Source: an uncultured Thermococci archaeon (GTDB lineage Archaea > CAYQAE01 > CAYVLA01). From it: DNA of 64,000 bases. Below, one piece after another: positions 3,259 to 55,072 of the stretch. Position 1 is the first letter of the stretch; the number at the start of each line of letters is the position of its first letter. Location of the stretch: NCBI GenBank assembly GCA_964549615.1, contig CAZJVP010000048.1, positions 1 through 64,000 of the forward strand, in the 5' to 3' direction. Below the pieces are notes generated by a model. It had not been told where the DNA came from. It ran no database searches and saw only the letters and a list, made by a program, of their open reading frames with translations. Both the position numbers and the translations under genes were made by a program.

Positions 3259-4464
3259 ATGCGCTCGGAATGGCTGTCCTTCAAGCGGCTCCTTTCCTTA
3301 TCCTTGATCTGCCTGGCGTTCCTGCCGAGCGCCCTTGGCGACGGGGACACAAGGAGGGCCAGTCTGCTGTTGGTTGGGGATATCTTTCCCTGTCCCGTGA
3401 TAGTGCTGTGCGAATCGGATCCGCTGTACCAGTACTTACCGATACAGACCAGGGAGATACCCGCGACGGAGGCCCAGCGGTACATCAGACTCTACTTCCC
3501 AAGGACCAGGGACGAGCTCTACGGCTATGGGGTCCTATTCTTCGTGGACCCGGACATGGACCCCTTCACCGGCCAACAGGTCGCGGCGATGCTGGACTCA
3601 GTCGCCAAGGGGCACTCGGGGACCTTCTGGACCTTCGGTCCCCACTACTCAAGCGTCGTCGCATCCGCGCTCGAGGCGGTGGTGCCCCACGAGATGTCGC
3701 ACGAGTTCAAGCAGTGGTCGTGGGGCAATGACTTCTACACCGTCAAGTTCAGAAGGAACCTCCCGCCCGTATTCACCTCATTCATCGACCTCGGGCTGGA
3801 GAAGGTCAGGGCCTACGGATGTGGGCAGACCGTGCCGAGGCCGGGTTCAACCGTCTGGGGCGACCTAGTCCCATTCGGTTGGCCCTGGATGACTTCCTGG
3901 AGGTACGGGGGAAACGGGGGCGTCTGCTGGGTGGCCGCCGATGACCTCGACCATCCCTGGTGGAGCGGAGAGACCTATGGCTTTTGCGAGAACAAGTATG
4001 CGATAGATGTCCTGGCGAACATCATTACTTACACGGTCGGAGGCAAGCTGCCCGACGATGTCTTGGTGCCAATCCGGATTCGCAGGGAGTTCCTCGACTA
4101 CAGGAGCGGAAAGAGCTTGTTCGTCTCGATCCTGGAGTTCGTGGAGAAATTCGGGGCTGGCACGAACCAACTCTATGAAGACTTCTCAAGGATCGATGCC
4201 GGCCTCGTCGGCCAGGCAAAGGCCTTCTACGTAGATGGCGACTACGATCAGGCCCTGGCGGCCATCAGGCAGGGTAACGAGGAGGTGAAGGCCCTCTGCG
4301 ACAAGGCGTTGGAAGCCAGGAAAAGGGCCTTGCTCTGGATCTTCCTGATCGAGTGGCTCGCGGTTTCCGGCACGAGCATGCTAGCGGGCTTCATGGTCTG
4401 GACGCTGATGGTGAAAAGGAGGATGTACCGGGAAGTGACGACCACCAGGCTTATCGCGAGGTGA
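3259..4464 (+). CDS. Family A membrane protein, copy 1 (signal peptide, GATase1-like domain, helical stalk, C-terminal TM)
   Basis: Shares RYIRLYFPRT, KFGA and ALLWIFLIEWLAVSGT...WTLMVKRRMYREV with three other ORFs in the window; start refined to ATG 3259. Confidence 0.8.
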   Translation: MRSEWLSFKRLLSLSLICLAFLPSALGDGDTRRASLLLVGDIFPCPVIVLCESDPLYQYLPIQTREIPATEAQRYIRLYFPRTRDELYGYGVLFFVDPDMDPFTGQQVAAMLDSVAKGHSGTFWTFGPHYSSVVASALEAVVPHEMSHEFKQWSWGNDFYTVKFRRNLPPVFTSFIDLGLEKVRAYGCGQTVPRPGSTVWGDLVPFGWPWMTSWRYGGNGGVCWVAADDLDHPWWSGETYGFCENKYAIDVLANIITYTVGGKLPDDVLVPIRIRREFLDYRSGKSLFVSILEFVEKFGAGTNQLYEDFSRIDAGLVGQAKAFYVDGDYDQALAAIRQGNEEVKALCDKALEARKRALLWIFLIEWLAVSGTSMLAGFMVWTLMVKRRMYREVTTTRLIAR

Positions 4465-4488
4465 TGCCTCCTCGAGATCCGCAGCCCC

Positions 4489-5283
4489 CTAGGCGGCGCG
4501 GGCGTGTTCCCTCCAGGCCAGAAGCTCCTTCTCCTCGACCCCTCCGGTCATCTCGATGAAGGCCTCCTCCAGCGTCCTCTTTCCGGTCCGGGCGATGATC
4601 TCCTCCACCGTCCCTAGGGCAATCAGCCTGCCCTGGTTGATGATGCCAATCCGGTCGCACAGCTCCTCCACGATGGGCAGGATGTGGCTGCAGACGAAGA
4701 TGGTCTTGCCGGCCTGGTCGGCGAGTTCCTTGATCAGATCCTTGACCATGAGGGCGGCCCTTGGATCGAGGGTGGAGGTTGGCTCATCCAAGAACAGGAT
4801 CGGCGGATCGTGCACCAGTGCCGCCGCCAGCAGGACCTTCTGCTTCATCCCCCGGCTGTATCCCTCCAGCAAATCGTTGCGCCTCTCCGACAGCCCGAAA
4901 AGCTCGAGCAGGTTCTGGATCCTGTCCGGCACGATCTCCCTGGGCACGTCGTAGAGGGCTGCCATGAACTCGAGGAATTCGTAGGCGCTTAGCTTCTCGT
5001 ACAGCCCGGGAGATTCGGCCAGAAGGCCCGTCACCCGCTTGACCTCGTTGGGCTCCTTGAGGATGTCATGCCCTCCAACCATGGCAGTTCCGGAGGTCGG
5101 CTTGATTATGCAGTTGAGGAGACGGACGGTCGTGGTCTTCCCCGCACCGTTCGGGCCAAGCAGCCCGAAGGTCTCGCCCTCGTATACCTCGAGGTTGAGA
5201 TGATCCACAGCCCTTATCTCCCCGCGTTTACCATAGTACTTACAGAGGTCCACCGTCCGAGCCACCACGTTCATGCGTCGCAC
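4489..5283 (-). CDS. ABC transporter ATP-binding protein (ABC-2/DrrA-like), no adjacent permease
   Basis: GPNGAGKTT Walker A, YSRGMKQ signature, LFLDEP Walker B, SH switch. Confidence 0.92.
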   Translation of the reverse strand: MRRMNVVARTVDLCKYYGKRGEIRAVDHLNLEVYEGETFGLLGPNGAGKTTTVRLLNCIIKPTSGTAMVGGHDILKEPNEVKRVTGLLAESPGLYEKLSAYEFLEFMAALYDVPREIVPDRIQNLLELFGLSERRNDLLEGYSRGMKQKVLLAAALVHDPPILFLDEPTSTLDPRAALMVKDLIKELADQAGKTIFVCSHILPIVEELCDRIGIINQGRLIALGTVEEIIARTGKRTLEEAFIEMTGGVEEKELLAWREHARAA

Positions 5284-5553
5284 CCGCCTGTTGCGGCTGG
5301 CCTTTGGCGCCTATTTATCCCTCACAAGCCCCATCCTCTTATAGTACTCCAAATACCCATGCCGGTCCACCGAGGGTTGGCCTGGTCCGGCAATCTTCAA
5401 ACGAGAATAGCTCATGGGAGGCAGAGGTCCTGTCCTCCGCCTCCCGGTACTGGCCACCTTCACGGCGAACCCCGCCGCAAAAATCCCAGCCTCACCAAGA
5501 CCCGCCAGCCAGCCTGACAAAGATTATTCAGCGGCCGATGAGGGCGCGACGCC

Positions 5554-7008
5554 ATGCCGATCAAGATAGCGATGATCGGGGCGGGCAGCATTCTCTTCAC
5601 GCGACGGCTCATCCAGGATGTCCTCACCGTTCCGGAGCTGGAGGATGCCGAGTTCGCCCTGACCGACATCAACGAACGAAACCTGGGCATGGTCTACCAG
5701 CTTGTGAAGCGCGACGTACAAGCGAACGGGAAGCCGGCCAAGTTGGTGGCAACCCTCAACCGTCGCGAGGCACTCGAAGGGGCCGACTACGTATTCTGCA
5801 CAGTTCGCGTCGGTGGCCTTGAGGCATTCCAGCTCGACATCGATATCCCTCTCGAATACGGCGTTGACCAGTGCGTCGGCGACACGTTGTGCGTCGGCGG
5901 GATCACGTACGCCCAGCGTTCGATCCCCGCGCTATTGGAATTCTGCCAGGATATCCGGGAGGTCGCGGCTCCCGATTGCCTCCTCATGAACTACGCAAAC
6001 CCCATGGCGATGAACACCTGGGCATGCGTGAAGTACGGCCGGGTACGGACGGTGGGGCTCTGCCACGGGATCCAGGGCGGCATACGACAGATCGCAGACG
6101 TGCTCCATGTCCCTGCAAAGGAACTGGATGTCATCTGCGCCGGAATCAACCATCAGGCATGGTTCATCTCTGTGAAGCACGAGGGCAAGGAGCTCACCGG
6201 AAGGCTTCTCCCAGCGTTCGAGCGACACCCCGTGTACCGGAGGACCGAGAAGGTGCGCATAGATATGCTCCGCCGGTTCGGCTACTATACCACCGAGAGC
6301 AACGGCCATGTCTCGGAGTACGTTCCCTGGTACAGGAAGCGGCCACGGGAGATCCGCAAGTGGATCGACCTGAGCTCCTGGATCAACGGGGAAACGGGAG
6401 GGTTCCTGCGCGTCTGCATCGAGTCGCGGAACTGGTTTGAGACGGACTTCCCGAAATGGCTTAAGGCCGATCCGCCGAGGTACAGCCCCGAGAAACGGTC
6501 AAGCGAACACGGATCCTACATCATCGAGGCACTGGAGACCGGGCGCACATATCGCGGCTACTTCAACGTGCTCAACAGGGGAATAATCACCAACCTCCCC
6601 GACGACTGTATCGTCGAGGCCCCAGGTTACGTTGACCGGAATGGAATCAACATGCCGATCGTCGGGGATCTGCCACTTGCGTGCGCCGCGACCTGCAACG
6701 CGAGCGTCCAGGTGCAGAGGATGGCGGTCGAGGCCGCGGTGCACGGGGATGTCACCCTGCTCAAACAGGCTGCCCTGCATGATCCGCTTACGGCCGCGGT
6801 GTGCAACCCGCCCGAGATATGGCAGATGATCGACCGAATGCTCGTTGCCCAGGCCAAGTGGCTGCCCCAATACGGAAAGGAGATCCCGAAGGCCAGGCGG
6901 AGGCTGGCCTCCCAGAAGAACCTCGGCACGAGATCCAACCGGGGAGCCGCCCGACTCAAGATAAGGACCGTTGACCAGATGAGGCGCAGCGCGAAGGCGC
7001 GCAGATAG
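5554..7008 (+). CDS. melA: GH4 family glycosidase, alpha-galactosidase (MelA-like)
   Basis: KIAMIGAGS NAD-binding motif, NYANPM, GLCHG, AGINHQAW, TESNGH. Confidence 0.85.
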   Translation: MPIKIAMIGAGSILFTRRLIQDVLTVPELEDAEFALTDINERNLGMVYQLVKRDVQANGKPAKLVATLNRREALEGADYVFCTVRVGGLEAFQLDIDIPLEYGVDQCVGDTLCVGGITYAQRSIPALLEFCQDIREVAAPDCLLMNYANPMAMNTWACVKYGRVRTVGLCHGIQGGIRQIADVLHVPAKELDVICAGINHQAWFISVKHEGKELTGRLLPAFERHPVYRRTEKVRIDMLRRFGYYTTESNGHVSEYVPWYRKRPREIRKWIDLSSWINGETGGFLRVCIESRNWFETDFPKWLKADPPRYSPEKRSSEHGSYIIEALETGRTYRGYFNVLNRGIITNLPDDCIVEAPGYVDRNGINMPIVGDLPLACAATCNASVQVQRMAVEAAVHGDVTLLKQAALHDPLTAAVCNPPEIWQMIDRMLVAQAKWLPQYGKEIPKARRRLASQKNLGTRSNRGAARLKIRTVDQMRRSAKARR

Positions 7009-7241
7009 GGGGGCATCGGCCCTCAGCCATCACTCAGGCCATCCATCCAAGGACGAAGCGCTCCTGCCGAGCGACTTCAAGCAAAGACCGGACGAATTAT
7101 CAAGGAAGCCGGAGGGGTCTTGGCTTCAGTTTGACTTGTGGGCATCCTGTCCAAGCTGCGAGGCCGGGTGCTAGCCTTTGCTTGGACTGGTCCCCACGCC
7201 GATCAGCAAGACATAAGAGGCGCATCGCCGGGCGCTACCAC

Positions 7242-8276
7242 ATGCCAGACTCTTCGAAGGCCAGGAGGGTCAAGGTGGGCGTGATCGGCGTTGGAGCCAT
7301 CGGCAGGCACCATGCCCAGGCATACAGGAACGCACCGGAGGCCGAGTTGGTCGCGATAGCGGACATCGATGAGGGCAGGGCCCGTGCTGCGGCAACCGAG
7401 CTCGGCGTGCCCAACGTCTTCACCGACTACAGGAAGATGCTCAAGATGCCCGGCTTGGAGGCAGTGAGCGTCTGCCTGCCCAACGTCTTGCATGCCCCAG
7501 CATCGATCGCTGCTCTGGAAGCCGGCAAACACGTGTTGTGCGAGAAGCCCCTCGCCACCGATGTCGCGAGCGCGCAGAGGATGGTGAGAGCTTCCAGGAA
7601 GAGCGGGAAGCGGCTGGCGATGTCGCTCAACCTGCGCCATACCGGAAGCGCCCAGATGCTCAAGAAGGCCGCTGAATCGGGGCTGCTCGGCCGCATCTAT
7701 CACGGGAAGGGCGGGATGCTGAGGAATAATGCCATACCGAAGGGCTGGTTCCACCGAAAAGAGTTCGCGGGTGGCGGGCCGCTGCTCGACCTCGGCTCCC
7801 ACATACTGGACGTAACATGGTGGGTTATGGGCAAGCCGAGGCCGGTCTCGGCTTACGGCGCCACTTACGCCGAGTTCGGCCCTAGGGGATTGGGGAAGGG
7901 AGACTGGGGGGTTGGCTACGAGGAGGGCCCCTTCGACGTGGAGGACCTCGCCTTGGGGCTTGTGCGGTTCGAGGGCGGGGAGACGGCCTTCGTGGAGGTA
8001 AGCTGGGCTGTGAACGCCAAGCCGATCACCTACAGTTACGTCTGCGGAACGGAGGGCGGCGCGTCGCTTTACCCAACCTTCGAAACGTTCAGGACGGACG
8101 GCACGCCCCTGACCATGGAACCGCTACAAGATTCGAACCCGCCGGTAAGATTCATCCAAGACCTGCTTGCGGACAGGCCACCCGTCGGGCCGGCCGAGGA
8201 GGGAGTCGTCGTGATGAAGATGCTCGAGGGCATCTACAACTCGGCGGAGACGGGTCGCGAGGTCCGGATACGCTAG
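7242..8276 (+). CDS. Gfo/Idh/MocA family oxidoreductase
   Basis: VGVIGVGAIG, GKHVLCEKP, GGGPLLDLGSHILD; start refined to ATG 7242. Confidence 0.92.
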   Translation: MPDSSKARRVKVGVIGVGAIGRHHAQAYRNAPEAELVAIADIDEGRARAAATELGVPNVFTDYRKMLKMPGLEAVSVCLPNVLHAPASIAALEAGKHVLCEKPLATDVASAQRMVRASRKSGKRLAMSLNLRHTGSAQMLKKAAESGLLGRIYHGKGGMLRNNAIPKGWFHRKEFAGGGPLLDLGSHILDVTWWVMGKPRPVSAYGATYAEFGPRGLGKGDWGVGYEEGPFDVEDLALGLVRFEGGETAFVEVSWAVNAKPITYSYVCGTEGGASLYPTFETFRTDGTPLTMEPLQDSNPPVRFIQDLLADRPPVGPAEEGVVVMKMLEGIYNSAETGREVRIR

Positions 8277-8468
8277 CTTAGCCTTGTGAGTCGGTTGCCC
8301 GGAAGTCACGGGCGTGACATCTCGGATAGGCGTGCATGTCCGCCCCTTAACGGCCATCTTGTGGTGAGTTGCAATGAGGTTCTTTCCTAAGGAAGGGCCC
8401 ATGGGCGAAGTGACTGTGGGTTGCCTGAGGGGGGCACATGGGTCCCGGGGGAACATTTTTCACTTACG

Positions 8469-8482
8469 GGTTACGCGTAACC
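8469..8482. promoter_or_regulatory. 14-bp perfect palindrome, candidate operator
   Basis: GGTTACGCGTAACC, 8 nt upstream of ATG 8491 of an RHH-like protein. Confidence 0.5.
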
Positions 8483-8490
8483 GCGATACA

Positions 8491-9021
8491 ATGCCTGCAG
8501 GAAAGCGCATAGGAAAGAAAATGCCTCACAGAGAGTTGGAGGAGTGGCGAAATCGCTGCATGGAGGCCATGAAGCTGTGGGTGGAGAAGAGTAAGGAGGC
8601 CCTGAGGTGCGGGGAGGACGAGATACCCCCGATACCAGCGCTGCCCCCACTTCCTCCGCTTCAGCATGGCCCGCCAGGTTTCGGCGGAAACCGTGAGCAT
8701 GTTCCCCCCTTCTTCGGCCCGCCGCGGTCCAACGTGGTGGCCTCCAGGATAGACGACGAGGGACTCAAAGTCGTGGACATGCTCGTCGAGGCCGGCCTCT
8801 TCGATACCCGGTCAGAAGCTGTGGCTTATCTGGTGGCCGAAGGCATCAAGGCTCGCAAGGACGTCATCGACCAAGTCTCGGCGGCGCTCGGAGAGATCCG
8901 CGAGATAGCCAAACGAAGAGAGGAGAGGATCGCCAAGCTCAGGGAGCAGATAGGCATCGCCCGCCCGGAGGCCCCCGGCGAAACCCCATACACCAAGGAC
9001 CAGCCCCCGTCGCTGCGCTAA
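8491..9021 (+). CDS. RHH-like DNA-binding protein with Pro-rich linker and C-terminal coiled coil
   Basis: SNVVASRIDDEGLKVVDMLVEAGLFDTRSEAVAYLV; start uncertain (8491 or 8521). Confidence 0.65.
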   Translation: MPAGKRIGKKMPHRELEEWRNRCMEAMKLWVEKSKEALRCGEDEIPPIPALPPLPPLQHGPPGFGGNREHVPPFFGPPRSNVVASRIDDEGLKVVDMLVEAGLFDTRSEAVAYLVAEGIKARKDVIDQVSAALGEIREIAKRREERIAKLREQIGIARPEAPGETPYTKDQPPSLR

Positions 9022-10609: not shown

Positions 10610-11468
10610 CGCGATTGCTCCTGAAGGCACCGACAACTTGACGCTGCCCAGCGCCGATGTCGGCGCGAGGGGCACGGGCTTCAACGTCCTCGTCATGCAG
10701 GGCGTCACGAAGGTCTACAACAGTGGACCAAATCGGGTGGAAGCACTCAAAGGAATCGACCTCACCGTCGCGCAGGGGACCATGGTTTCCATTATGGGGT
10801 CCTCGGGCTGTGGCAAGACAACGCTGCTCAACATCGCGGGTTGCCTGGACACGCCCACATCTGGGAGGGTCATCCTTGACGGGATCGACCTGGCAACGGT
10901 TCCCAGGCGCGACCTACCTACGATAAGGGCCCGCAAGGTCGGCTTCATCTTCCAGACCTTCAACCTCATGCCCATGCTGACGGTGCTAGAGAACGTTGAG
11001 CTTGCGATGGAGCGGGGGACGCTGCCCAAGAACGAGAGAAGGCAAAGGGCCATCCAGCTGCTCGAACAGGTGGGGCTGAGCGAAAGGGTCAACCACCGTC
11101 CCAACCAGCTCAGCTCCGGCGAACAGCAGAGAGTCGCCATAGCAAGGGCGCTAGCAAACAACCCCTCTCTGATACTGGCAGATGAACCTACGGGGAACCT
11201 CGATAGCAAGACCGGGCTGGGGATAATCAAGATCCTAAGGGGCCTCTGCGCCGACTCGGGGGCTACCATCCTTCTCGTCACGCACGACAGGACGATGGGT
11301 TCGCTGGGTGACAGGATGCTGTTCCTGCGAGACGGCAGGCTGCTGAAGGAGGAGAAGAAGGGAACGCTTGCTCCCGAGAGGGGCGAGAAGCCCCGCTGTC
11401 CAAGCTGCGGTAGGGAGATAGCAGCCGACTTTGTGGTCTGTCCGTACTGCGGCGCGAAGTTAGCATGA
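10602..11468 (+). CDS. LolD/MacB-type ABC ATPase with C-terminal zinc ribbon
   Basis: GSSGCGKTT, LSSGEQQRV, LADEPTGNLD; C-terminal CPSC...CPYC. Confidence 0.92.
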   Translation: MSSAIAPEGTDNLTLPSADVGARGTGFNVLVMQGVTKVYNSGPNRVEALKGIDLTVAQGTMVSIMGSSGCGKTTLLNIAGCLDTPTSGRVILDGIDLATVPRRDLPTIRARKVGFIFQTFNLMPMLTVLENVELAMERGTLPKNERRQRAIQLLEQVGLSERVNHRPNQLSSGEQQRVAIARALANNPSLILADEPTGNLDSKTGLGIIKILRGLCADSGATILLVTHDRTMGSLGDRMLFLRDGRLLKEEKKGTLAPERGEKPRCPSCGREIAADFVVCPYCGAKLA

Positions 11469-17255: not shown

Positions 17256-17259
17256 GGGA

Positions 17260-39953: not shown

Positions 39954-39968
39954 CGTCCCTCCTCCCGA

Positions 39969-41183
39969 TCACTCCCTCTCGATAAGCTTGGTCACCCTTA
40001 CCTCCTTGTACAGCCGCCTCCTCACCATCAGGCTCCAGAGTAGAAAGCCCGCGACCATCGAGGTGCCGGAGACGACGAGCCATTCTGCCATAAAGATCCA
40101 GAAAAGAGCCCTGTCCTTTGCTTCCAAGACCTCTTGGGTCATAGCGTCGAGTTCGGCCAAGAGGCTCGACAGCCCGGATCGGCACTCCTCCAGCTCCTGA
40201 ACCACGTACTGCTTGTCCACGGCTGCTTTGGCCGCGCCGAGCTCGCCTAGCCTCATCTCAACCTGCCTCAGATTGGCGCCGAACCTGTCGGCGAAGTCTA
40301 TCGTCGAGACAAGGTATGTCCTCCTGTAGTGGAACTGGTTGAAGAGCGCCCTTATTTCGTGTACGAGCTCGAGGTCCTGCGGGATGGGGACGCGCGCCGG
40401 GAAGTATATCAGATGCGACAGCACATCGATGTGCCACTTCCAGCGGTAGAAATCGGGCGTGCCGTGCCACTTGTGCACATATGCCACGGACCTCCCCTCG
40501 CCGTAGTCCCAGTAGACGATCACGGGCTTGTTGCGGTTGTAGGGGACCTCCGGGGACATCCTAGCCAAGACTGTGGCGCCTTCCCTCTCCCAGGGGCGGT
40601 TGTGCGCCCATATCCTTATCTCGTGCCAGGGAAGGTTGCGCATCAAGGGATGATCGCGGTACTCCTCCTCAACGATTATGTGGAAGCCGTGCTGCTCGTA
40701 GTATATCGCCGCCTTGTCGTCGACAGGGAGGATGTCCCCGATCGGGTGTAGATACCAAGAGGTGTGTCTGCCGCTGGTCGCAAAGCTCGACGAGTCGTCA
40801 GCCATCAGGAAACCCATGCCCTCGTTCCGGACCCCTTCCTTAACCCAGTTCTGAAAGTCGTCCCGCAGGTGGCTTGCATCCATCCCGTCCTCTATGACCA
40901 CATCAAAATTGTCGTAAAGCGCGCGCTGGCTTCTCGGCAGATACATTCGGAGACACCGGAAAGCCTCCTCGCCCATTGACCACGCGTGAGCCGGAACGGG
41001 ATAGTAGCTGATTCGAGGATCCTGGCTGAGCACGGGGCCTGGGTGTCCAGGGTAGAACCATGCCTTGCCGATGTGAAGCAGGCGAATCACGCCGTTGGCG
41101 TCGGTCCTTGCGTCGAACTCGCCCGATGCCTGGGAAAGTGCGATAGCGATGAGGACCGCAAAGGCGAACAGCCCTTTTCGCAC
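39969..41183 (-). CDS. Family A membrane protein, copy 2
   Basis: RCLRMYLPRS, RFGA, ALFWIFMAEWLVVSGT...WSLMVRRRLYKEV. Confidence 0.8.
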   Translation of the reverse strand: MRKGLFAFAVLIAIALSQASGEFDARTDANGVIRLLHIGKAWFYPGHPGPVLSQDPRISYYPVPAHAWSMGEEAFRCLRMYLPRSQRALYDNFDVVIEDGMDASHLRDDFQNWVKEGVRNEGMGFLMADDSSSFATSGRHTSWYLHPIGDILPVDDKAAIYYEQHGFHIIVEEEYRDHPLMRNLPWHEIRIWAHNRPWEREGATVLARMSPEVPYNRNKPVIVYWDYGEGRSVAYVHKWHGTPDFYRWKWHIDVLSHLIYFPARVPIPQDLELVHEIRALFNQFHYRRTYLVSTIDFADRFGANLRQVEMRLGELGAAKAAVDKQYVVQELEECRSGLSSLLAELDAMTQEVLEAKDRALFWIFMAEWLVVSGTSMVAGFLLWSLMVRRRLYKEVRVTKLIERE

Positions 41184-41290: not shown

Positions 41291-42055
41291 TTACACCGCG
41301 TAGCCGCCGTCCAGCACCCTTATTTCGTAGAGGATGGCCCTGAAGAGCCAAAGCCCAAAGGCGCAGGAAACCACTAGGGGAAGGAGGGCGAGAGGGCCGG
41401 GCAGGTGCTCGCTCCCGAGGGCCGCGAAGAGGAATATGGCAAAGTTGTACAGGGCATGGTACGTGACGGCCATGGCGTACCGGGTTATCCAGAAGCCCCC
41501 CAGTAACTTCTGGGTGGATATGCCGGATCCCGAGATCGCGCCCGTGGCGCCGTGAAGCGAGGCTGAGCCAAGCGACCTTACGACGATCAGCACTGCGATC
41601 GACGCCAAGCCCGCAGCCTGACCCAGGGCGAGGCTTTCCTGTTTCCAGGAAACGAAGAAGTACATGACGTTCTCAGTCGCAGCGAAACCGAAGCCTGCCG
41701 CCGCCCCGTACACAAGGCCGTCCTCGATCTCGTCGAAAAAGGGCTTGTTGCGCAACAGAAGGACGGGGAGGGCTTTGGTGAACTCCTCGAAGATGGGGGC
41801 CAGGACGACGATGCCAAGAAGCAGGGTGCTCCTCTGGGCGGCATTGGTCGCCGTCGCGTAGATATCCACGACCACCTGCCCGGCCATCTCGAGGACCAAG
41901 GCCAAGCCCGTCGAGACGACGGCACCGAGAGCGAAAACCTCTAGGACTCTGCCGAAGGGTTCCCTTCGCGTCAGCTCTGAGCGCCTCACCCACAGAACGT
42001 AGAAAATGCATGGAACGAAGCCCATAGCGATGAGGGCCAGCTCCTCTTGGATCAC
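41291..42055 (-). CDS. prsW: PrsW family intramembrane protease
   Basis: RREP, APIFEEFTK, DGLVYGAAAGFGFAATEN, SLHG, YHALYN; start refined to GTG 42055. Confidence 0.9.
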   Translation of the reverse strand: MIQEELALIAMGFVPCIFYVLWVRRSELTRREPFGRVLEVFALGAVVSTGLALVLEMAGQVVVDIYATATNAAQRSTLLLGIVVLAPIFEEFTKALPVLLLRNKPFFDEIEDGLVYGAAAGFGFAATENVMYFFVSWKQESLALGQAAGLASIAVLIVVRSLGSASLHGATGAISGSGISTQKLLGGFWITRYAMAVTYHALYNFAIFLFAALGSEHLPGPLALLPLVVSCAFGLWLFRAILYEIRVLDGGYAV

Positions 42056-42156
42056 ACCCCGCGCCACAGGTTGGAGGATAAATATCTTCCGACCGAGAGA
42101 CCGGAAGGAGGAGCAACTCGGGAGTGTGAAACTTATCACTGCAACAGGACGGACTG

Positions 42157-45100
42157 GTGAGCATGGATCTGCCGACGGAGCTCGAACAACTGCATGAAAT
42201 GCTCGAAAGGAGTCTGCTAGCACGCTTGGAGTGGAAATGCATTGGGCTGGACGTGCCCGGCGCCCACAGGGTCGTCTTCGACGACTCCGGTTGGTCGGGC
42301 CAGGGAGCGCTGGCTGGGCGGCTGTGGAACGTCGGGTGGTTCAGGACCCAATTCACCATCCCGGAACTCCTAGACGGCTGTGCCTTGGAGGTTTCACCGA
42401 TCATGGGGGGAAGGAGTCGGGTCTTCGTCAACGGCAGGCTGATCGGGAGTTGCGGTGCCGGCGGCTCGGTGCCGACCCCGAAGGTCAGGGGCGGGAGTGT
42501 CCTCACCCTGGCAATAAGGAACGAGAATGGCTGGATAAGCTATGAAAACCCGTGCCCTGCCACCATCAGGTGTGAGCGTCAGGCAATATTGCTTGGCATC
42601 TTCGAGGAACTCTTCTTCCTCCGGAGACTAGAGCAGGCCGGCGGCCGGGAGAGTTCTGAGATCAGCAGGTGCCTTGAGTCATTCTTGGAAGCGGTTGATC
42701 GGGAGGCGCTTGCCCACGGCCAGATCGATTGTTTCGTCCAGTCCCTCGCCAAGGCACGGGACGCGCTCCTGCCAGCTGCCAATCTATTGAAGCGCTATAC
42801 AATCTACGTCGTGCCACATTCCCATGTTGACCTAGCGTGGGGATGGACCTACGAGGAGACGAAGAGGATAATGAGGACGATCTTTGACCGGGCAACCGAG
42901 CTTCTGGATGATGACCCCAACTATACCTTCGCCCAGGACCAACCGCCGGCTTACAACCACCTAGAGGGAACGGGGCTCATGGAAAAGGTCGCCCGTTACG
43001 TCGGCGAGGGCAGGCTGGACCCCTGCGGGGCGATGTACTCGGAGCCCGAGGGCAACATGCCGTGCGGGGAATCCTTCGTCCGCCAGGTAATGCTCACCAA
43101 GAGATACTTTCAGGATAGGTTCGGCGCCGACCCGAAGGGGTGCTGGAATCTGGACTCCTTCAGCGGCCATTGCTGGAGCCTCCCCCAGATCCTGACGAAA
43201 TCCGGGGTGCGCTACTACACCTTCGCAAACTGGGGGAACCTCATCCCGGACGTGGAGTTCTGGTGGGAGGGGCCGGACGGATCGCGAGTTCTCGCCTACC
43301 ATCTTCCTTGCCACTACGATAGTGCACAGATGATGGAGCACAACAAGATACTCCAAAACTTCTTTGGCTATGCTTCCAGATCCAAATTCAAGCGCTTCAT
43401 GTTCCTCGACGGCGATGACCTAACTCCGCCCGTGCGCGACAGCATCGAGGGCGTCAAGTGGTTCAGCCAGTTGGCGGTCGGCCCAACGGTGAAGTTCTCC
43501 ACGCCGGCGAAGTTCTTTGAGGATCTGGAGAAGGACGACCTTTCAGCGATCCCCACCTACCGGGGGGAACTCGCCCAGCACCTCGATCCTAACGGCAGCA
43601 ACAACGCCGGGTCGTACACCACGCATTGCGAAGTCAAGAGAAGGAACAGGCTCTGTGAGAATCTCCTCCTGACGGCGGAGAAGTTCGGCTCCATCGCGAT
43701 GCTTCTTGGAATGGAGTTCCCGAGGGCGCTCATGCAACGGGGATGGGAGGCCGTGCTCCTCAACCAGATGCACGACATCCTGCCCGGTACCGCGATCAAG
43801 GAAGCCTATGAGGAGGCTCATCGCCGATACGATGAAGCGGAAGCGATCGCGAAGGAGACGATCGCGCTCTCCCTTGGACGGATCTCCGCAAGGATCGATA
43901 CCCGCGGCAAGGGGACGCCGATCGTAGTCTTCAATTCCCTCAGCTGGGAGAGAACCGATGTCGTTGAGGTGAAGGTCACCCTCGATCACACCTACAAGGC
44001 TTGGCCTAGGATCACCGGGCCCGACGGAGAAGAGGCCGAGTGCCAGGTGCTGCACGACAGCCGGGGAACGTTCGACAAGACCAATAGAAGCATGACCATC
44101 CTCTTCGTCGCAAGAAAGGTGCCGGCCCTGGGCTACAAGCTCTACCGCCTCACCCTAGACGGCAGGCGCCCACGGTCCGCGGGGAGGGTCTCCAAGGTGA
44201 GCCAGTTCACCCTGCAGAACGAGTATCTGGAAGCCGTGATCGATGCTCAAACCGGCCTCGTCCGATCGCTGAAGCGGGGAGGGCGGGAGTTCATTTCGGG
44301 ACCCGAGGGCTTCCTGTTGGTAAGGTACCTAGATAGCGGCGACCCCTGGCACATCAGGCTCGTCGGGGATGCCTCCAAGCTCATACGCGCCCAGTCGGTG
44401 GAACTTGTGGAGGCCGGCCCTGTCCGCACCACGGTGAGGATCTGCAGGAAGGATGGGAACACCCAGATCGTTCAGGAGGTGTCGTTGTGCAAGTCCGTGC
44501 CAAGGCTTACTTGCCGGACGACCTTGGACTGCGGCGACCTTTACGTCCTGTTCAAGGCCTCGGTTCCGGTCAATGTCGGTCCGGCCAAGGCCACCTTTGA
44601 GATACCTTTCAGCACGATCTCCAGAGAGGCCGCGGGCATCGACAGGCCGGCGCAGAACTGGGTTGATTTGTCCGACGGGGAGCGCGGCCTCGCCGTCCTG
44701 AACGATGGCAGGTACGGCTACGACATAGATGGCGGAAGAAGGATCAGGTTAACGTTGCTGAGGAACCCTAAGGGACATCGCTCCAACGAGGGAACGGACT
44801 CCGGCCCCCACTCAACCTCGCTGGGTCTCTTCCCGCATGAAGGTGACTGGACATCCGGGGTAGTCCGCCAGGGCCTGGAGTTCAACAACCCCCTGCTCTG
44901 CCACGTGGACAGCCCGCACGAAGGCGACCTTCCCACCGCTTTGTCGTTTCTCTCCCTCTCGGCCCCCAATGTGGTGGTGTCCTGCCTTAAGCCCCACGAG
45001 GACTCCAAAGACCTTGTCCTGCGCATCTATGAGGCCCACGGATCCCGTGTCGACGATGCCGGGATACGGGGCAGGATCGGGTTCGAGGGACTGGAGGAGA

Positions 45101-47280: not shown

Positions 47281-48108
47281 CTAGCTCGACTTAGCGCCGA
47301 TCCAGTTGATGGCCATGGGGCCAGCGCCGAACCCGGTCTCCGTGGTTACGAACTGGATGATCCCAGCATGGCCAAACATGTACAGCGTGTCGAGGGTTAC
47401 CTCCAGATGCACCCTCTCCCCCGCCGAGAGGTCATGGAAATGAAGCATGCCAAACGGGGCCTCGGCGATGCTGGCGCACGGCTCCTCGCCCGGGGCGGAC
47501 TTGGACTTGAAGCAGATCGATTCCCTGGGGGATGTGTACCTGATGCTGCTGATGACAGTGTTCCGCGAGAAGAAGAAATCCCTGTACCCGCAGAATGTGC
47601 TAACCCTGCCTCCCTCGCCGACGAGGAGTGCGTAGACCGTGTAGACCGACCCAAGGATCTCCTCTCCTGCTAGGGCGGCCATAGCGTCGGTGAAGTCGAA
47701 GAGGTACATCTTCCCGCCGAGTTCCAGCTCAAAGACTTGGTATGTCGGCTGTCCACCCAACTGGGCCTGCATGGAGTCGAGGAAGGCCTTTGTCTCCCTA
47801 AACCTAGGCACGTTCGCGATCATGTCCTCAAGACTGCGCCCCGTCGTCTCATTCCACGGCTTGACCAGCGGCACGGAGAGGTTCACTAGGAAATGAAACC
47901 GAACTACTAGGTCCGGAAGGTCGCGGACCGCCATCAAGTCTATGGAGTAGCTAGGCGACCCGGGCACGCCGCCGGGGATGTCGCTAGGCGTGCGCTGGGC
48001 GAGGACCCTGACGACCTCCTTCTCACGGATGCCGAAAGTCAAGAAGGAGACAAGCGTCGTGATGACGAGTATGATTGCAAGGAAGCCCGCCAGGCGCCGG
48101 TCAACCAC
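47281..48108 (-). CDS. Family B N-terminally anchored protein, partner of family A copy 3
   Basis: Overlaps the stop of 48101-49324; homologous to 54293-55072 (DR.L.G.LA, R[DN]L.D..VR, [FY]DF, G.RV). Confidence 0.75.
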   Translation of the reverse strand: MVDRRLAGFLAIILVITTLVSFLTFGIREKEVVRVLAQRTPSDIPGGVPGSPSYSIDLMAVRDLPDLVVRFHFLVNLSVPLVKPWNETTGRSLEDMIANVPRFRETKAFLDSMQAQLGGQPTYQVFELELGGKMYLFDFTDAMAALAGEEILGSVYTVYALLVGEGGRVSTFCGYRDFFFSRNTVISSIRYTSPRESICFKSKSAPGEEPCASIAEAPFGMLHFHDLSAGERVHLEVTLDTLYMFGHAGIIQFVTTETGFGAGPMAINWIGAKSS

Positions 48109-49324
48109 TTAAACCGCCTCCCCTCGTCACCTTGACCTCCCTGTAGAGCCTCCTCTTCACCATCAGCGTCCAGACCACGAATCCGCATATGAGCCCAGTC
48201 GCGCTGACGACGAGCCATTCCGTGATGAAGATCCAGAACAGGGCCAGATCCCTTGCCTCGAGGGCTAGGTCATAGGCCTCCTGAAGCATCCCGAAGACCT
48301 CATCTGCGATCTGCTTGCTCTCCACAAGTTCCAGGTCGACGAAATGCTTCTTGGCTTCCTTCAGCCGCGCGTCGGCTTCCGAGAGCTTCCTGTCGACCTT
48401 CCTCGTGTCGGCGCCGAACTTGCTGATGAAGTCGATCGTCCCGGTGATCACCTGGGTCTCGTCGTAGACGTCCTTGAAGCGCTGGCGGGTGGCGTGAAGG
48501 AGGTTGATGTCGGAAGGGGGCGTAAGCCCCGCTAGGAAATACACCATATTGCACACGAAGTCAGGATAGTGTTTCCAACGGATGAATCCCCGGCCAGCGG
48601 ATCCCCCCCGGAAGCCGGGCGCTGATGCAAAGAACCGGCCCTTGCCCACGTCCCACCAGACCCACCCAGGGTCCCTGAGGCCCACGCCGGTGCCACCCAG
48701 GCGGATCACCTGCGAGAGCTCGTGCGCACCCTCCTTCAGTTCGACGACGTTGTACCCGCCGAAGACGTTGTGCTGCTCATACTCGTCCCAAGGCACGCTG
48801 CGTATGAAAGCATCATCTGGAGCCGTGACGACGGTCTTCCCGTCGGGGCCGTATGTGCTTGTGCACTTGACCGGCATCACCTCGCTGAGAACCGTTGCAT
48901 CCCACGAGGGGAAGCCGGCACCGCCCCCGAACGACTCAAATCCGCCAGCCATGAACAAGCCAAGCGCGCTGTCCCTGCAGGCGTCGGCCATCCACTGGAT
49001 GGTGTTTGGAGGAAAGGCGTACCACGTCGTATCATCCAAGCCGATGATGTCGCAGCTAGCCACCATGCTGGCCTTGGTCCTGGGCATGTAAAGGCGCATG
49101 GCCCTCTGAACCAGGGTACTTGGAAGGCCGTACATGTTCCCGGCGATGGGCGTCGCGGAGATCAGGGGGTCGAATTTGTAAACCTGGTAAGGGCATGCCG
49201 CAAACGGCTGCCCGATGTAGATGACCCGGATGACGCCGGTTTCTGGATCGCGCTTCAACTCCTTGCCTGCTGCCGTCGCAAGGAGGAGGATAGCACATAT
49301 GCCCAGAACGGCCCCCGGCCGCAT
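48101..49324 (-). CDS. Family A membrane protein, copy 3 (clearest DUF1355/GATase1-like motif)
   Basis: GLFMAGGFESFGG...W..TVLSEVMPV; RLYMPRT; ALFWIFITEWLVVSAT...WTLMVKRRLYREV. Confidence 0.8.
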   Translation of the reverse strand: MRPGAVLGICAILLLATAAGKELKRDPETGVIRVIYIGQPFAACPYQVYKFDPLISATPIAGNMYGLPSTLVQRAMRLYMPRTKASMVASCDIIGLDDTTWYAFPPNTIQWMADACRDSALGLFMAGGFESFGGGAGFPSWDATVLSEVMPVKCTSTYGPDGKTVVTAPDDAFIRSVPWDEYEQHNVFGGYNVVELKEGAHELSQVIRLGGTGVGLRDPGWVWWDVGKGRFFASAPGFRGGSAGRGFIRWKHYPDFVCNMVYFLAGLTPPSDINLLHATRQRFKDVYDETQVITGTIDFISKFGADTRKVDRKLSEADARLKEAKKHFVDLELVESKQIADEVFGMLQEAYDLALEARDLALFWIFITEWLVVSATGLICGFVVWTLMVKRRLYREVKVTRGGGLSG

Positions 49325-49472
49325 TGGTCCGAAAACACGCCGATTTGTCGATTTAAATATTCCGGCAATGATATGATGACTGGAAGCGAAGGACAGCCGG
49401 TCTGCCCGGTGCTGCCGCGGCCGTTGAACGGCTAGGCACCCCCCGGGCTTGTTCCTCGGCAGAGGCCCATCC

Positions 49473-49829
49473 TCACTGGATCAGCTCCGCAAACAGCGCC
49501 CTAACCAGCCCCTTTTCCGATCTTCCCGCGCGAAGGGCGCGAAGCACTGAGTTCGCAAGATCGTCCAGCGACACCCTGGTTACCACCTCGTAGTAGAGAG
49601 GATCGATCTTGACCCTTGTAACGATTCTGCAAGGGACCGGTACGACGGTGTACGCATCAACGCCATAGCTGGAGGGGACGTCCGGAATCCGGCGCATCAA
49701 CAGCCTCCCGGCCTCCTTCGAGAGCGACGCCGCTATGTCGTCGCGGATCAGAAGGTTGTGGCGAAGCCCGGCGACGAACTCCCGGATCCGCAACTCACGG
49801 TCAATGAGGATGTCCATGACATCGCCCAT
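49473..49829 (-). CDS. Hypothetical protein
   Basis: ATG 49829 preceded by AGGAGG; 118 aa. Confidence 0.55.
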   Translation of the reverse strand: MGDVMDILIDRELRIREFVAGLRHNLLIRDDIAASLSKEAGRLLMRRIPDVPSSYGVDAYTVVPVPCRIVTRVKIDPLYYEVVTRVSLDDLANSVLRALRAGRSEKGLVRALFAELIQ

Positions 49830-50261
49830 CCTCCTTTCCCTCCGGTCAAGGACCCATCCTGGGCTCTTTGATTCGAAACCGTCCTGGGGCGGCATTGTGG
49901 TAGCGTTCGGCACCACGAATGAGTCTCCCCTGAGCTGGGCGAGCCTAGCATCCAGGTACACGGTTCTTGATCGGAGGAGTGATCTCTGACGGGCTCGAAA
50001 GCACCATGCCCTCAGGCTAGATCCTGAGAATATCACGTCCCCTATCCTCGCCTTGCCGTGCCTGCGCGCCGACAGCAGGCTTCTGACCGAGATCAGATCG
50101 GAAGGATGTTCGGACGACGTCCGGCCCCGCTCCGACGAATCGTTTTGGCAACAGCCGGATAACGGTTTCGGTCCTTGGAGCTGCTGCGGAGGCTGGGAAT
50201 CTACGCCGTCAGGGGTGGAAAATTATATCAGAAGGACGCCAGATCGAGCGGGCAGGTCCAA

Positions 50262-51674: not shown

Positions 51675-52235
51675 GGGCAACCGCGGATGGTGTGCGAGGC
51701 CGCGGCCACAGGTAACGCGGGCACCCTCTTCGTCGCAGGTTCTTCCAATGAGCAGGCCGGAGTTTCTATCTTCGTTCCCTGTTAGCAGTAAGCGAAAGAA
51801 CGGCGCGTGAAGATGCGAGGATGCCCCGACTCCAACGCCGACCACTGAGCTCGAGCCTTGTCGTGACGAGATGCGGTGTTTGAGAATCTTGGCACGCTTG
51901 GGGTAGCAAATGTCGTTGCCGCGCGAGTCGACTAGCTGCCTTGCGGCGGGTGCATCTCGTCGGGTAGTTTACCGCGGTTGGCCGGACTCCGCAGTTGCGG
52001 CGCGGCGATCTCAAGCCGTGGTCGGCCCCCACTTGGTGCCCCGGGCGGCCTAACGGAGGATCAAGACTTAGTGCCCCGCGGCCGCGAGCGCTCCCGAGGC
52101 GTCCATTCGGGCAACCGTTTGGGACATGTGGCCCCGGGAATAGCACCTGCGCATCCGGGGCAATAGAACGCTTCGGACGTTGTCCGCGAAGGTTTAAGAA
52201 CTCAGCGATGCAGTTGGTTGCGGAGAGAGAGGTCA

Positions 52236-52841
52236 ATGGATCTCAATACTCTAACGAACTTCGTGCTCTTGATCTGTCTCGTTATCTTCATCGTCGTCCT
52301 CGCCTATCGGGCCTTGTCCGGTTTTGCCGCCAGGCCGCGATACCCAAGGGCCCAGCCGGCGACGGTTCGCTACATTGGAAGGGCGGCAGGGACGGAGCCG
52401 CAGGTTCTTGAGGAGCAAGTCGCCGAGAAGGAAGCTCTTGCTCCGGAGGAACCGCCGATGTCTGTGGAAGCCACGATTCCACAGGAGCCCACGCTGGTGC
52501 AGCGTCCGGTCGCCGCGCAACACGCGCCCGGGCCCCGAAGAGCCACAGTTTTTCCCTCCATACTCGCAACCGAGCTTCTGTCCCGCGCTGCTGACGAAGA
52601 CGCGGAGGAGATCCAAAGGATCGCCAAGGAGCTCGTTGACTACTGCGTGGTTCGCGGGAGCGCCGCCAACGTCAGGCCGGAGGTTCTCGAAAAGCTTGCG
52701 GTTCAGTTCGCAACCTTGGAGGTGGCCGTCAGGAAGGCATCCATCGGCGCGGACGGGGAGGCACGCCCAGTCCCGGATGACCTGCGGTCAGATCTTTTCC
52801 GTGAGGCGTTCCGGCTTTTGGCGTCGCAGGCCAAGCGCTGA
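52236..52841 (+). CDS. Hypothetical protein with N-terminal TM, Pro/Glu-rich linker and helical C-domain
   Basis: TTTAAG TATA near 52193 and GAGG SD before ATG 52236. Confidence 0.65.
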   Translation: MDLNTLTNFVLLICLVIFIVVLAYRALSGFAARPRYPRAQPATVRYIGRAAGTEPQVLEEQVAEKEALAPEEPPMSVEATIPQEPTLVQRPVAAQHAPGPRRATVFPSILATELLSRAADEDAEEIQRIAKELVDYCVVRGSAANVRPEVLEKLAVQFATLEVAVRKASIGADGEARPVPDDLRSDLFREAFRLLASQAKR

Positions 52842-52987: not shown

Positions 52988-54289
52988 GTGGACGCCGAGA
53001 CCCGGACCTGGGCCGGACAGATAGCCGTTTCCCTGCCTTGGCGAACCTGCGCACCTCTCTTCAAGCCTAGGCACGTGGCCGGGTTCCTTGTTATCTGGGT
53101 CTTGGTCGGAGTGTCCCCGGCCCGCAGCGCGCCCGCCGAGCGGATCAAGATCATACTCACCGGCAGGGCGTACGAGGGCTCCCTGATGAGGAACTGGTTC
53201 GTAAACGAACCCATGGCGGATCCCATCGCGATACCGACCCGCGATGTTCCGGGCGGGATTGAGGAGGGCAGGCGGTACGTCAGGATGTACTTCCCTCGAA
53301 CCTACGAGCGGCTTGCGGAATGCGACTTCGTGATCTTCGAGGGAACCGAGATGGTGCACTTCTCGCACACGCAACAGAAGTGGCTACATGATGCCATAAG
53401 GGACCATGGCATGGGTGGCCTGAACTCCAGGAGCGTGCTGAGCGCCGTTTACTATGGCCAGTGGATTGCATCCGTGACCCAGCTGGCCTTCCCCAACGAC
53501 GTTGACGCCGTCATCGCGGGTCCGGGGTGGAAGTTCGGCCAGACCATGGAGATAGTGCTGAACGATGACCCGAGCCTCAGGCCAGTCCTTCTCATGTTCA
53601 AGGACAAACCCATCAAATGGAAGCTTACAAACTACGACGCGATGGTCGTCGTTCCGAGACCCGGTGCCACGATCTGGTCCTGGATCAAAGGACCGTTCCC
53701 GGAGCTTTCGATCCCATGGCCGGGGTACACGCCGCACTTGATCTCTTGGACGTATGGCAACGGAACGACCTGGACCTGCCATGACAGGACAGTCAACTGG
53801 TGGCAGGACATTCGCGATGCAAATCCATACGGGCTGGACATGATAATGAACATGATCCTCTACAGCACCGGGAGGGATCTTCCCCAGGACATAGACCTCA
53901 TTCATTCGATTCGAAGGCGGTTCACCGAGTTTGGGACGAGGAAAACGCTCGTCATCTCGACGATCGAGCTCGGACAGAAATTCGGTGCAAGCATGACGCG
54001 AGCGGAGGCGAGCTTAACGGAGCTGGAGAAGCTTTACCTCGCGGCCAGGGAGGCCTATGTGGAGCAGAGGGAGGTCGAGGCCTCCGATCTCGTTAACCGG
54101 CTCATAGAGGGCTCAAGACATGCCAACGAGGTGGCCATGGAGGAACTCAACCGGGCCCTGCTGTGGATCCACGTCATCAACTGGCTCGTGGTGTGCGGCA
54201 CGTTCATGGCCTCTGGGTTCGTGCTCTGGAGCCTGATGGTCAGAAAGAAGCTCTACAGGGAAGTGGCGTCGACGCGGCTGGGAGGCTAG
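52988..54289 (+). CDS. Family A membrane protein, copy 4
   Basis: RYVRMYFPRT, KFGA, ALLWIHVINWLVVCGT...WSLMVRKKLYREV; start uncertain. Confidence 0.8.
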   Translation: MDAETRTWAGQIAVSLPWRTCAPLFKPRHVAGFLVIWVLVGVSPARSAPAERIKIILTGRAYEGSLMRNWFVNEPMADPIAIPTRDVPGGIEEGRRYVRMYFPRTYERLAECDFVIFEGTEMVHFSHTQQKWLHDAIRDHGMGGLNSRSVLSAVYYGQWIASVTQLAFPNDVDAVIAGPGWKFGQTMEIVLNDDPSLRPVLLMFKDKPIKWKLTNYDAMVVVPRPGATIWSWIKGPFPELSIPWPGYTPHLISWTYGNGTTWTCHDRTVNWWQDIRDANPYGLDMIMNMILYSTGRDLPQDIDLIHSIRRRFTEFGTRKTLVISTIELGQKFGASMTRAEASLTELEKLYLAAREAYVEQREVEASDLVNRLIEGSRHANEVAMEELNRALLWIHVINWLVVCGTFMASGFVLWSLMVRKKLYREVASTRLGG

Positions 54290-54292
54290 GGG

Positions 54293-55072
54293 TTGGACAG
54301 GCAGCTCATCGGCGTGTTAGCGGTGTCTCTGGTGGCCGCGACATTGGTCACGCTCATTGCGGCGGCGGAGAAGGAAAGGATTCTGGTCTCGGGGGTTTTC
54401 TGCCCGGAGTACATGGCGCAGTCGAGCGCCGAGTACTGCTTCGGCGTAAGCTTCATCACGACTCGGAACCTTGCGGATGTTGAGGTCCGGGCTTGCACCC
54501 TTTCAGGCCTGACGCCGGAATCGTTTGGTCTGAAACCCGACGAGCAGGATCCCGAGCTCTACCCGCCTATCAGTATCCTCAGGGAGGAATCATCCCGGTT
54601 GGGCGTCGAGATCCAAGCTAGCCGGTTCGAGCTCAACGGTGACTCATCGTCGCAGCAGATCGTCTACTACGATTTTCTCCCGCTGTTGGAACGTCTCTTC
54701 ATCGATCCGGCGCGCTTGCCGCTTGGTCGGATCACAACCTGCTATGGTTTCTTCCGCCGAGCGGGGAAGCTTGAGACTTGTTTCAAGGGTAGCGGTGAGA
54801 TCTTTCCGGCTGAAAGCTCCTCGCTCAACAAGATCCTCGTAGAGGTGGACGGGCGCCCGCGGTACGGCTGGGAGAGAGGCACTGGCCCTGAGAGGCAGGC
54901 GCGAGGGATCAGAGTGGGAGAGGTTACCAAGGGCAGCCGAGTGGACGTCCTGTATTACATAGACGGACGGTGGGCGAGAGTGGGATCGCTACTTTGGAAG
55001 CTGGACGTGATTGCGGGAGGCGAGGTCCTCTACTCGAGGGTGCGTCTTATCAACGTGGCCGGCTCTGCCTAG
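54293..55072 (+). CDS. Family B N-terminally anchored protein, partner of family A copy 4
   Basis: 3 nt after family A copy 4; homologous to 47281-48108. Confidence 0.75.
   Translation: MDRQLIGVLAVSLVAATLVTLIAAAEKERILVSGVFCPEYMAQSSAEYCFGVSFITTRNLADVEVRACTLSGLTPESFGLKPDEQDPELYPPISILREESSRLGVEIQASRFELNGDSSSQQIVYYDFLPLLERLFIDPARLPLGRITTCYGFFRRAGKLETCFKGSGEIFPAESSSLNKILVEVDGRPRYGWERGTGPERQARGIRVGEVTKGSRVDVLYYIDGRWARVGSLLWKLDVIAGGEVLYSRVRLINVAGSA

Follow-up and report, generated by a model that had tools for sequence, protein, structure and literature searches.

Family A in the window and in its genome

We analysed a stretch of 64,000 nucleotides (nt) from an uncultured Thermococci archaeon (positions 1 to 64,000 of contig CAZJVP010000048.1, GenBank assembly GCA_964549615.1), referred to below as the window. 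The window contains four genes for members of one family of predicted membrane proteins, here called family A. A preliminary description had assigned these open reading frames (ORFs) a common architecture with a signal peptide, a divergent outer domain (the head), a helical stalk, and a transmembrane (TM) helix with a cytoplasmic tail (part of what we call the base). All four ORFs are present on the strands given below, all are true paralogs, and the shared architecture was borne out.

3259..4464, forward strand: family A copy 1, 401 amino acids (aa); signal peptide, GATase1-like head, three-helix stalk and conserved base
4306..4461, forward strand: conserved base of copy 1, last 52 aa; juxtamembrane helix, TM helix and basic tail
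39969..41183, reverse strand: family A copy 2, 404 aa; match to Pfam PF07090 (28.0 bits)
39972..40127, reverse strand: conserved base of copy 2, last 52 aa
48101..49324, reverse strand: family A copy 3, 407 aa; match to PF07090 (31.3 bits); the copy chosen for structure modelling
48104..48262, reverse strand: conserved base of copy 3, last 53 aa
52988..54289, forward strand: family A copy 4, 433 aa counted from the GTG at 52988; Asn in place of the conserved Glu
54137..54286, forward strand: conserved base of copy 4, last 50 aa

For copy 4, two starts are possible, GTG 52988 and GTG 53075. In a MAFFT alignment of the four copies, identity to copy 1 was 28–30%. Of 46 invariant columns, 19 fell within the last 50 residues. 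The motifs initially quoted for the four proteins, R-[LM]-Y-x-P-R-[TS], P-x-D...R..F...FGA and AL[FL]WI..[EN]WL.V..T...GF..W.LMV...Y.EV..T, were all found in this alignment.

Profiles built from the four copies were run against all stop-to-stop ORFs of at least 60 aa in the genome of the window (G000; 3.21 Mb, 104 contigs, 99.5% complete, 2.8% contamination). The genome-wide expansion that had been guessed from the four copies proved real. A total of 130 ORFs matched at E < 1e-40, and 129 of them matched both the head and the TM profiles. These 129 full-length copies are spread over 49 of the 104 contigs and together make up 172.6 kb (5.4%) of its DNA. Another 17 matches are fragments, split genes or divergent relatives.

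Within the genomes examined, family A is restricted to one lineage. The full-length profile matched four of 31 related genomes, all four from one taxonomic family, and none of the 27 genomes outside that family. A profile of 68 C-terminal positions matched four of the five genomes of the phylum, with 136, at least 150, at least 146 and 91 matches (the two lower bounds are floors, with 150 of 222 and 150 of 160 first-look candidates scored in those genomes), and gave no match in the fifth. When 1.84 billion cluster representatives were searched exhaustively with a profile, matches comprised 317 clusters at E ≤ 1e-30, 621 at E ≤ 1e-10, and 2463 at E ≤ 1e-3. In a word-indexed search, all 91 matches were without a name or called 'hypothetical protein', and two were labelled 'Theionarchaea archaeon'.

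The median identity of a copy to its nearest paralog was 0.54. Public relatives of copy 1 were 90%, 87% and 60–66% identical to it. The best matches of copy 2 were 71% (genome G001), 67% (G003) and 52% (G002), and the orthologs of copy 3 were 69, 64 and 60% identical. Copies 2 and 3 thus had matches of 60–71% in other genera, whereas the ordinary paralogs of copy 3 reached only 31–38%. As cross-genus orthologs are closer than paralogs, the expansion is old and each paralog is individually conserved. This pattern argues against fast antigenic variation.

Head, stalk, base and sequons

An AlphaFold2 model of copy 3 (87 aligned sequences; predicted local distance difference test (pLDDT) 91.3, predicted template modelling score 0.86) comprised a hydrophobic N-terminal helix (residues 3–19), an alpha/beta domain (32–264), and helices at 273–301, 308–329 and 333–390. 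The GATase1-like character initially ascribed to copy 3 was supported by fold match, profile homology and Pfam. The nearest solved structure was STM3548 (2gk3; Z 25.2, root-mean-square deviation (rmsd) 2.0 over 207 residues), followed by a Planctomyces GATase1-like protein (3rht; Z 24.3). A profile of the family matched three solved proteins over the whole head: 2gk3 (E 1.6e-13), 3soz (4.2e-11), and 3rht (9e-11). Copies 2 and 3 scored barely above the cut-off of Pfam PF07090 GATase1_like (28.0 and 31.3 vs 27 bits), and the same search gave no PF07090 match for copies 1 and 4. The PF07090 model matched 27 of 87 family members at E ≤ 0.001, marking family A as a divergent subfamily.

Weaker fold matches included ThuA-like 1t0b (Z 16.8), Agd3, accessory domains of GH42 enzymes, and IFT52 (Z 14.6). 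Carbohydrate-active proteins with GIFT or GATase1-like folds (ThuA-like, GH42, Agd3, and fucosidase and mannosidase accessory domains) matched at Z 13–17. Two chains of oligosaccharyltransferase (OST) were also matched, 6s7o_G (411 residues, human OST-A) at Z 14.8 and 6c26_B at Z 11.9; judging by chain length, these are probably OST48 and Wbp1, respectively. The protein atlas lead for family A was DUF4350/IFT52_GIFT (0.81). GIFT modules like those of the family A heads are found in GldG/ABC_transp_aux, IFT52 and DUF4350 proteins, where they are often tethered to membranes via terminal TM helices. Pfam gave no GldG/ABC_transp_aux, IFT52, DUF4350 or ThuA-like match for the four copies, and the likeness to ThuA is one of fold only.

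A check for the catalytic Cys and His of glutamine amidotransferases was negative. Over the 129 copies, no head column had Cys in more than 12% or His in more than 29% of sequences, and the position of the nucleophile elbow reads G-x-G-x-x-M-x-G-G, without Cys. The heads are therefore not canonical amidotransferases, and a catalytic class I enzyme was rejected because both the elbow Cys and its His(/Glu) partner are absent.

With the solved members of PF07090 (formerly DUF1355; STM3548 2gk3, STM1381 3soz and Planctomyces 3rht), the heads have in common their fold, detectable sequence homology, the motifs yDvivl.D, G.GllM.GG..sF, L.evLPv and G.Gr..a...D, and the lack of a catalytic Cys. Those proteins are stand-alone, 250 aa long, deposited as cytoplasmic, and of unknown function. 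Family A, unlike them, is archaeal, present in 129 copies and depleted of sequons, and its members carry a signal peptide, a three-helix stalk and a conserved TM base. According to a 2026 paper (PMC13432705), the function of STM3548 has not been studied, and our search of the literature on DUF1355, PF07090, GATase1_like and STM3548 found nothing on archaeal members. The head family is thus already known though uncharacterised, and no characterised family accounts for family A. Our searches of main texts on Theionarchaea, PF07090 and archaeal sequons turned up no account of an architecture with this stalk and base, of the expansion to 129 copies, of the restriction to one taxonomic family, or of the avoidance of sequons. 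The available part of one Theionarchaea paper (PMC9258230) does not mention family A.

Residues 271–360 superposed on antiparallel three-helix bundles (Z 11, rmsd 2.0 over 86 residues), indicating a compact stalk whose third helix runs on into the membrane. The second most conserved motif of the family, F.E.FGAN, sits between stalk helices 1 and 2. A hydrophobic N-terminus was detected in 110 of the 129 copies with a crude threshold. There is one C-terminal TM helix, and the cytoplasmic tail has a median length of 16 aa and a net charge of +4. The N-terminal signal, the single C-terminal TM helix and the charge of the tail together place the head outside the cell. Family A consists of type-I single-pass surface proteins with a Sec-type signal peptide, a non-catalytic GIFT-type head, a three-helix stalk and a base. 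In the base, a juxtamembrane segment is followed by a TM helix, along which small residues form a stripe, and by the basic cytoplasmic tail RRRLYREVxxTR.

The base is the most conserved part of the protein, as had been proposed from the four copies and now holds family-wide. Mean identity over 8256 pairs of the 129 paralogs was 0.21 for the signal peptide, 0.255 for the head, 0.269 for the stalk, and 0.515 for the TM helix plus tail (tail alone, 0.59). Between copy 3 and three orthologs, the corresponding ranges were 0.58–0.72 (head), 0.48–0.63 (stalk), and 0.77–0.79 (TM helix plus tail). All of the top 20-column information windows among the paralogs fell within the C-terminal 48 columns (2.95 bits vs a mean of 1.73). 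Eight positions are nearly fixed: W (95%), E (96%), W (95%), G (92%), M (98%), R (95%), Y (95%) and T (97%). Most residues in columns 379, 383 and 387 are small, and a small-xxx-small stripe of this kind is typical of helices that pack tightly. With a spacing of some 20 residues from the cytoplasmic RRR below it, the conserved Glu would lie at the outer membrane interface rather than in mid-membrane. The initial claim of conserved intramembrane Glu/Asn and Trp residues therefore stands for conservation and fails for the placement of the Glu, which is interfacial by this spacing.

The same residue was encoded by the same codon at a frequency of 0.413 in the base and 0.434 in the head. Synonymous sites are thus equally randomised in both, so selection acts on the protein. 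Shared 7-mers were sparse around the genes, the top ones occurring in only 8–10 of 125–129 genes (150 nt upstream and 120 nt downstream). All 135 matches of the TM model in the genome belonged to family A, and neither the tail motif nor the juxtamembrane motif was found on any other ORF. Because it is confined to family A heads, the base is not a portable sorting tag. Archaeosortase and exosortase signals (PGF-CTERM, PEP-CTERM) likewise have a conserved TM helix at the C-terminus, with basic residues after it, and occur in many paralogs. They are about 25 aa long, with a short signature motif, and are found on unrelated proteins, whereas the family A base spans about 50 aa and has a conserved cytoplasmic motif. 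None of the four copies matched an NCBIfam model at E ≤ 0.01, C-terminal sorting models included. A general sorting tag of this type was rejected, given the exclusiveness of the base and the absence of a curated match.

We also assessed N-glycosylation sequons (N-x-S/T), with expected counts obtained from per-protein shuffles. The 129 family A ectodomains contained 17 sequons vs 121.8 ± 9.1 expected, a seven-fold depletion, and 112 copies had none. The depletion affected both the heads (14 vs 86 expected) and the stalks (one vs 26). It recurred in 83 public relatives (16 vs 75.6 ± 8.2 expected; 67 without any). Four control motifs in family A occurred at 0.79–0.86 of expectation. Sequons were more frequent than expected in background ORFs of at least 350 aa (2355 vs 1828), in 130 other, putatively exported ORFs selected by crude criteria (548 vs 284 ± 14), and in 28 ectodomains of a second membrane-anchored family, family B, with members encoded next to copies 3 and 4 (82 vs 27.6 ± 4.5, a three-fold enrichment). 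The four window copies had zero, zero, zero and one sequon vs 3.1 expected, which is not significant alone. Three homologs of the OST catalytic subunit STT3/AglB were matched in the genome, two of them strongly. A depletion to one seventh is understandable only for a head that meets the OST and is harmed by glycans, and the best reading of these counts is that family A heads are obligatorily unglycosylated. Among the papers listed by a search on sequons in archaea, none was relevant.

Possible roles of the base and the heads

In the interpretation that we prefer, the base is a common docking or assembly module, and the heads are binding modules for different extracellular partners, the family B proteins among them. 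We give it a probability of roughly 0.5. A base that is specific to the family and under selection at the protein level fits such a common role; the single shared membrane partner or processing protease suggested in the preliminary description is a candidate. In the membrane, the base would pack helix against helix, and its counterpart would be another family A protein or a single invariant membrane component. The heads, old and individually conserved, would bind different extracellular partners or ligands. One partner class may be the sequon-rich family B proteins, predicted to be co-transcribed with about a tenth of the copies. The head would meet the OST and have to stay bare to work. By analogy only, this arrangement recalls immunoreceptors such as TCR-CD3 and KIR-DAP12, which assemble with shared signalling adaptors via conserved TM residues and likewise combine variable ectodomains with a conserved TM helix carrying polar residues. 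There is no homology to those systems, no adaptor was identified, and the family A Glu is interfacial.

Two members of family B are encoded in the window:

47281..48108, reverse strand: family B member B1, 275 aa; N-terminal TM anchor and beta-sandwich ectodomain; the GTG start overlaps the end of copy 3 by 8 nt
54293..55072, forward strand: family B member B2, 259 aa; begins 3 nt past the stop of copy 4

The genome has 31 family B members, which share a conserved DRRL.G......S[TS] start at the N-terminal TM anchor. AlphaFold2 predicted beta-sandwich domains (pLDDT 86.6). There was no Pfam or NCBIfam match and nothing usable from the protein atlas, and a Foldseek search of the PDB gave no convincing match (template modelling scores ≤ 0.38). 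A family B gene lies directly downstream, on the same strand, of 13 of the 129 family A genes, copies 3 and 4 included, and 22 of the 31 family B genes are within 3 kb of a family A gene. The pair was kept in three of four related loci in other genomes, and the fourth locus ends at a contig edge. A complex prediction for copy 3 (residues 21–407) with B1, run without controls, scored 0.09 against a mark of 0.32.

Next to copy 2 lies a protease gene:

41291..42223, reverse strand: PrsW-family intramembrane protease gene (Pfam PF13367, E 4e-28), 108 nt upstream of copy 2 on the same strand

This position was kept at two of four related loci (L018 in G001 and L019 in G003). The genome has two PrsW genes, and only one of the 129 copies has PrsW as a neighbour. 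A functional link between PrsW and family A is an unproven candidate. The long PrsW ORF shares 67 nt with the start of a divergent ORF that encodes a GH38 alpha-mannosidase (42157–45213, forward strand). As the PrsW domain begins at residue 88, the true start is probably further downstream.

As a baseline for neighbouring genes, positions no more than 4 kb from a family A copy make up 27% of the genome. Above this baseline were family B (p 4e-7), a 355-aa family (11 of 16 members within that distance), sulfatases (11 of 19), fucosidases (four of five), and Reg_prop genes (seven of 12). ABC ATPases (seven of 54), GFO/IDH/MocA, URO-D-like and xylose-isomerase-like TIM-barrel families were not enriched.

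Several observations weigh against a common docking role for the base with partner-binding heads. No partner was identified, and no RNA run was listed for window positions 39900–49400. The anchor of family B, taken as a control, is also somewhat more conserved than its ectodomain (0.33 vs 0.22 identity), so the effect is partly generic. The premise of the preliminary description that simple anchors usually diverge fastest thus held only in part; what stands is that the effect in family A is far stronger, with invariant Trp, Glu, Gly, Tyr and Thr. Family B follows only the 13 copies mentioned above, and these B-linked copies form no clade (12 changes on a FastTree tree vs 11–13 in ten of the 200 shuffles run). 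The neighbour families were picked from the same neighbourhoods in which they were counted, and the enrichment values and p are therefore optimistic and biased upwards. A further weak point is the position of the FGAN loop, which helix topology would put at the membrane-proximal end, beside the conserved juxtamembrane stretch.

The base might alternatively be a recognition signal for one shared membrane protease (PrsW, rhomboid or archaeosortase-like) that sheds or re-anchors the heads, family A then being a set of processed surface or secreted proteins. The conserved PrsW position upstream of copy 2 fits this idea, as do the two PrsW, two archaeosortase-family and two rhomboid genes of the genome and a TM helix with helix-weakening Gly, Thr and Ser beside a near-invariant juxtamembrane stretch. 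Processing nevertheless seems unlikely to us, given that PrsW adjoins a single copy while over a quarter of the genome lies close to one, that sortase-type tags are portable between unrelated proteins whereas the base occurs only on family A heads, that conservation spans the whole TM helix and a 12-residue cytoplasmic tail, and that no NCBIfam sorting model was matched. It is less probable still that the base has no partner and is conserved only through constraints on insertion or stability in the membrane of this organism. The elevated identity of the family B anchor agrees with such constraints, and the DNA is present in a run labelled hot springs metagenome (which may be the source run). 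Invariant Trp, Glu, Gly, Met, Tyr and Thr together with a cytoplasmic motif far exceed the needs of hydrophobicity, however, and family B shows that other anchors of the same membrane are free to vary. Readings in which gene conversion or a DNA or RNA element preserves the 3' end of the genes, or in which the proteins are active glutamine amidotransferases, are scarcely tenable. The latter has the name of the Pfam family alone in its favour and meets an elbow without Cys and the absence of a conserved His, while the former are rejected by the codon usage of base and head, and no 7-mer is shared upstream or downstream.

Two further alternatives concern the heads. They may be glycan-binding capture or receptor modules of a polysaccharide degrader, left unglycosylated so as not to bind their own glycans, with a base that only oligomerises. 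This is rather unlikely as a full account, though compatible with a docking or assembly role of the base. The recurrence of the GIFT/GATase1-like fold in carbohydrate-active proteins, the sequon depletion, the sulfatase, fucosidase and Reg_prop genes near family A, and the GH4 and GH38 genes in the window are all consistent with it. A sugar-binding role has been proposed for GIFT domains (PMC7226087), but sugar binding has been demonstrated for no PF07090 member. The gene enrichment is also weak after correction for 11 tests, with families chosen from the same neighbourhoods, and the GFO/IDH/MocA, ABC ATPase, URO-D-like and TIM-barrel families did not share it.

By analogy with OST48 and Wbp1, family A could also provide accessory or adaptor subunits of the archaeal OST AglB, with the base docking on AglB and the head recruiting clients such as B proteins. 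The architecture is that of OST48/Wbp1 (signal peptide, GIFT-type luminal domain, one C-terminal TM helix and short tail), the heads match 6s7o_G and 6c26_B, and the avoidance of sequons in family A accompanies their enrichment in the downstream family B. According to PMC7226087, Wbp1 has a GIFT domain, its TM helix contacts Stt3, and it is thought to be a docking platform. One family A copy (268–1527) lies 400 nt upstream, on the same strand, of a weak STT3-like ORF (1927–3291, 27.5 bits) on the 3.3-kb contig C61 of the genome (locus L042). In G003 the family A gene and the STT3-like ortholog are convergent, and in G001 there is no family A gene within the flank. With 129 copies, an adjacency of this kind can be expected by chance, and it was rejected as a real link. 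IFT52 and ThuA are matched at least as well in fold, Pfam DDOST (DDOST_48kD) was not matched at E ≤ 1 by any of the four copies, and 129 copies face three STT3-like genes. OST48 has a second luminal domain and is single-copy, and with no match at the level of sequence, the likeness is one of architecture and fold only. We therefore regard an AglB subunit as very unlikely. The same holds for the bolder proposal that family A corresponds to OST48/Wbp1 in an archaeal version with about 130 copies. Each copy would be an adaptor for particular clients, plugging the base into AglB or another single membrane machine and choosing with its diversified, glycan-free head the surface proteins to be handled, for instance the sequon-rich B proteins. 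If real, this library would have no described precedent among accessory subunits of an archaeal OST, and it would programme surface glycosylation in a new manner.

A single family of unknown function occupies a twentieth of the genome, with paralogs that are old and individually conserved, which suggests a central and unstudied part of the cell-surface biology of this lineage. The near-invariant, family-exclusive base, the diversified non-catalytic heads, and the seven-fold sequon depletion amid enriched exported proteins offer experimental handles. The base could be used as bait for a partner, and engineered sequons could serve as a functional probe. Family A would supply the first functional context for the uncharacterised PF07090 fold and may bear on how GIFT-type domains entered the eukaryotic OST.

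Other neighbouring genes and features of the window

The 355-aa family mentioned above (family C; locus L003, contig C51:33465-34535 of G000, and 15 relatives) has no Pfam match and often adjoins family B genes. As 11 of the 16 members lie no more than 4 kb from a family A gene, an A-B-C module may exist.

The glycan-degradation set of the genome includes GH4, GH38, 19 sulfatases, five fucosidases, 36 GFO/IDH/MocA proteins and 25 xylose-isomerase-like TIM barrels. In the window, the GH4/GH38 regions are at 5554–8276 and 42157–45213. The repertoire recalls planctomycete-type polysaccharide degraders.

Three FG-GAP/beta-propeller surface proteins are encoded on the forward strand of the window (1368–3161, 13868–16846 and 55406–56974). 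At the C-terminus of two of them, a P-x-[DP]-E motif is followed by a hydrophobic helix and a cluster of basic residues, much as in an archaeosortase-type signal. No NCBIfam CTERM model matched these proteins, though the genome has two archaeosortase-family genes.

Six ORFs of the window, 187–419 aa in length, had no Pfam match at E ≤ 0.001 (8374–9021, 19996–21255, 25082–25813, 37355–37990, 49473–50036 and 52218–52841). An ABC ATPase with a C-terminal zinc ribbon (10602–11468, forward strand) adjoins a MacB/FtsX permease (9239–10609) and a Lon_C protease-domain protein (11491–12516).

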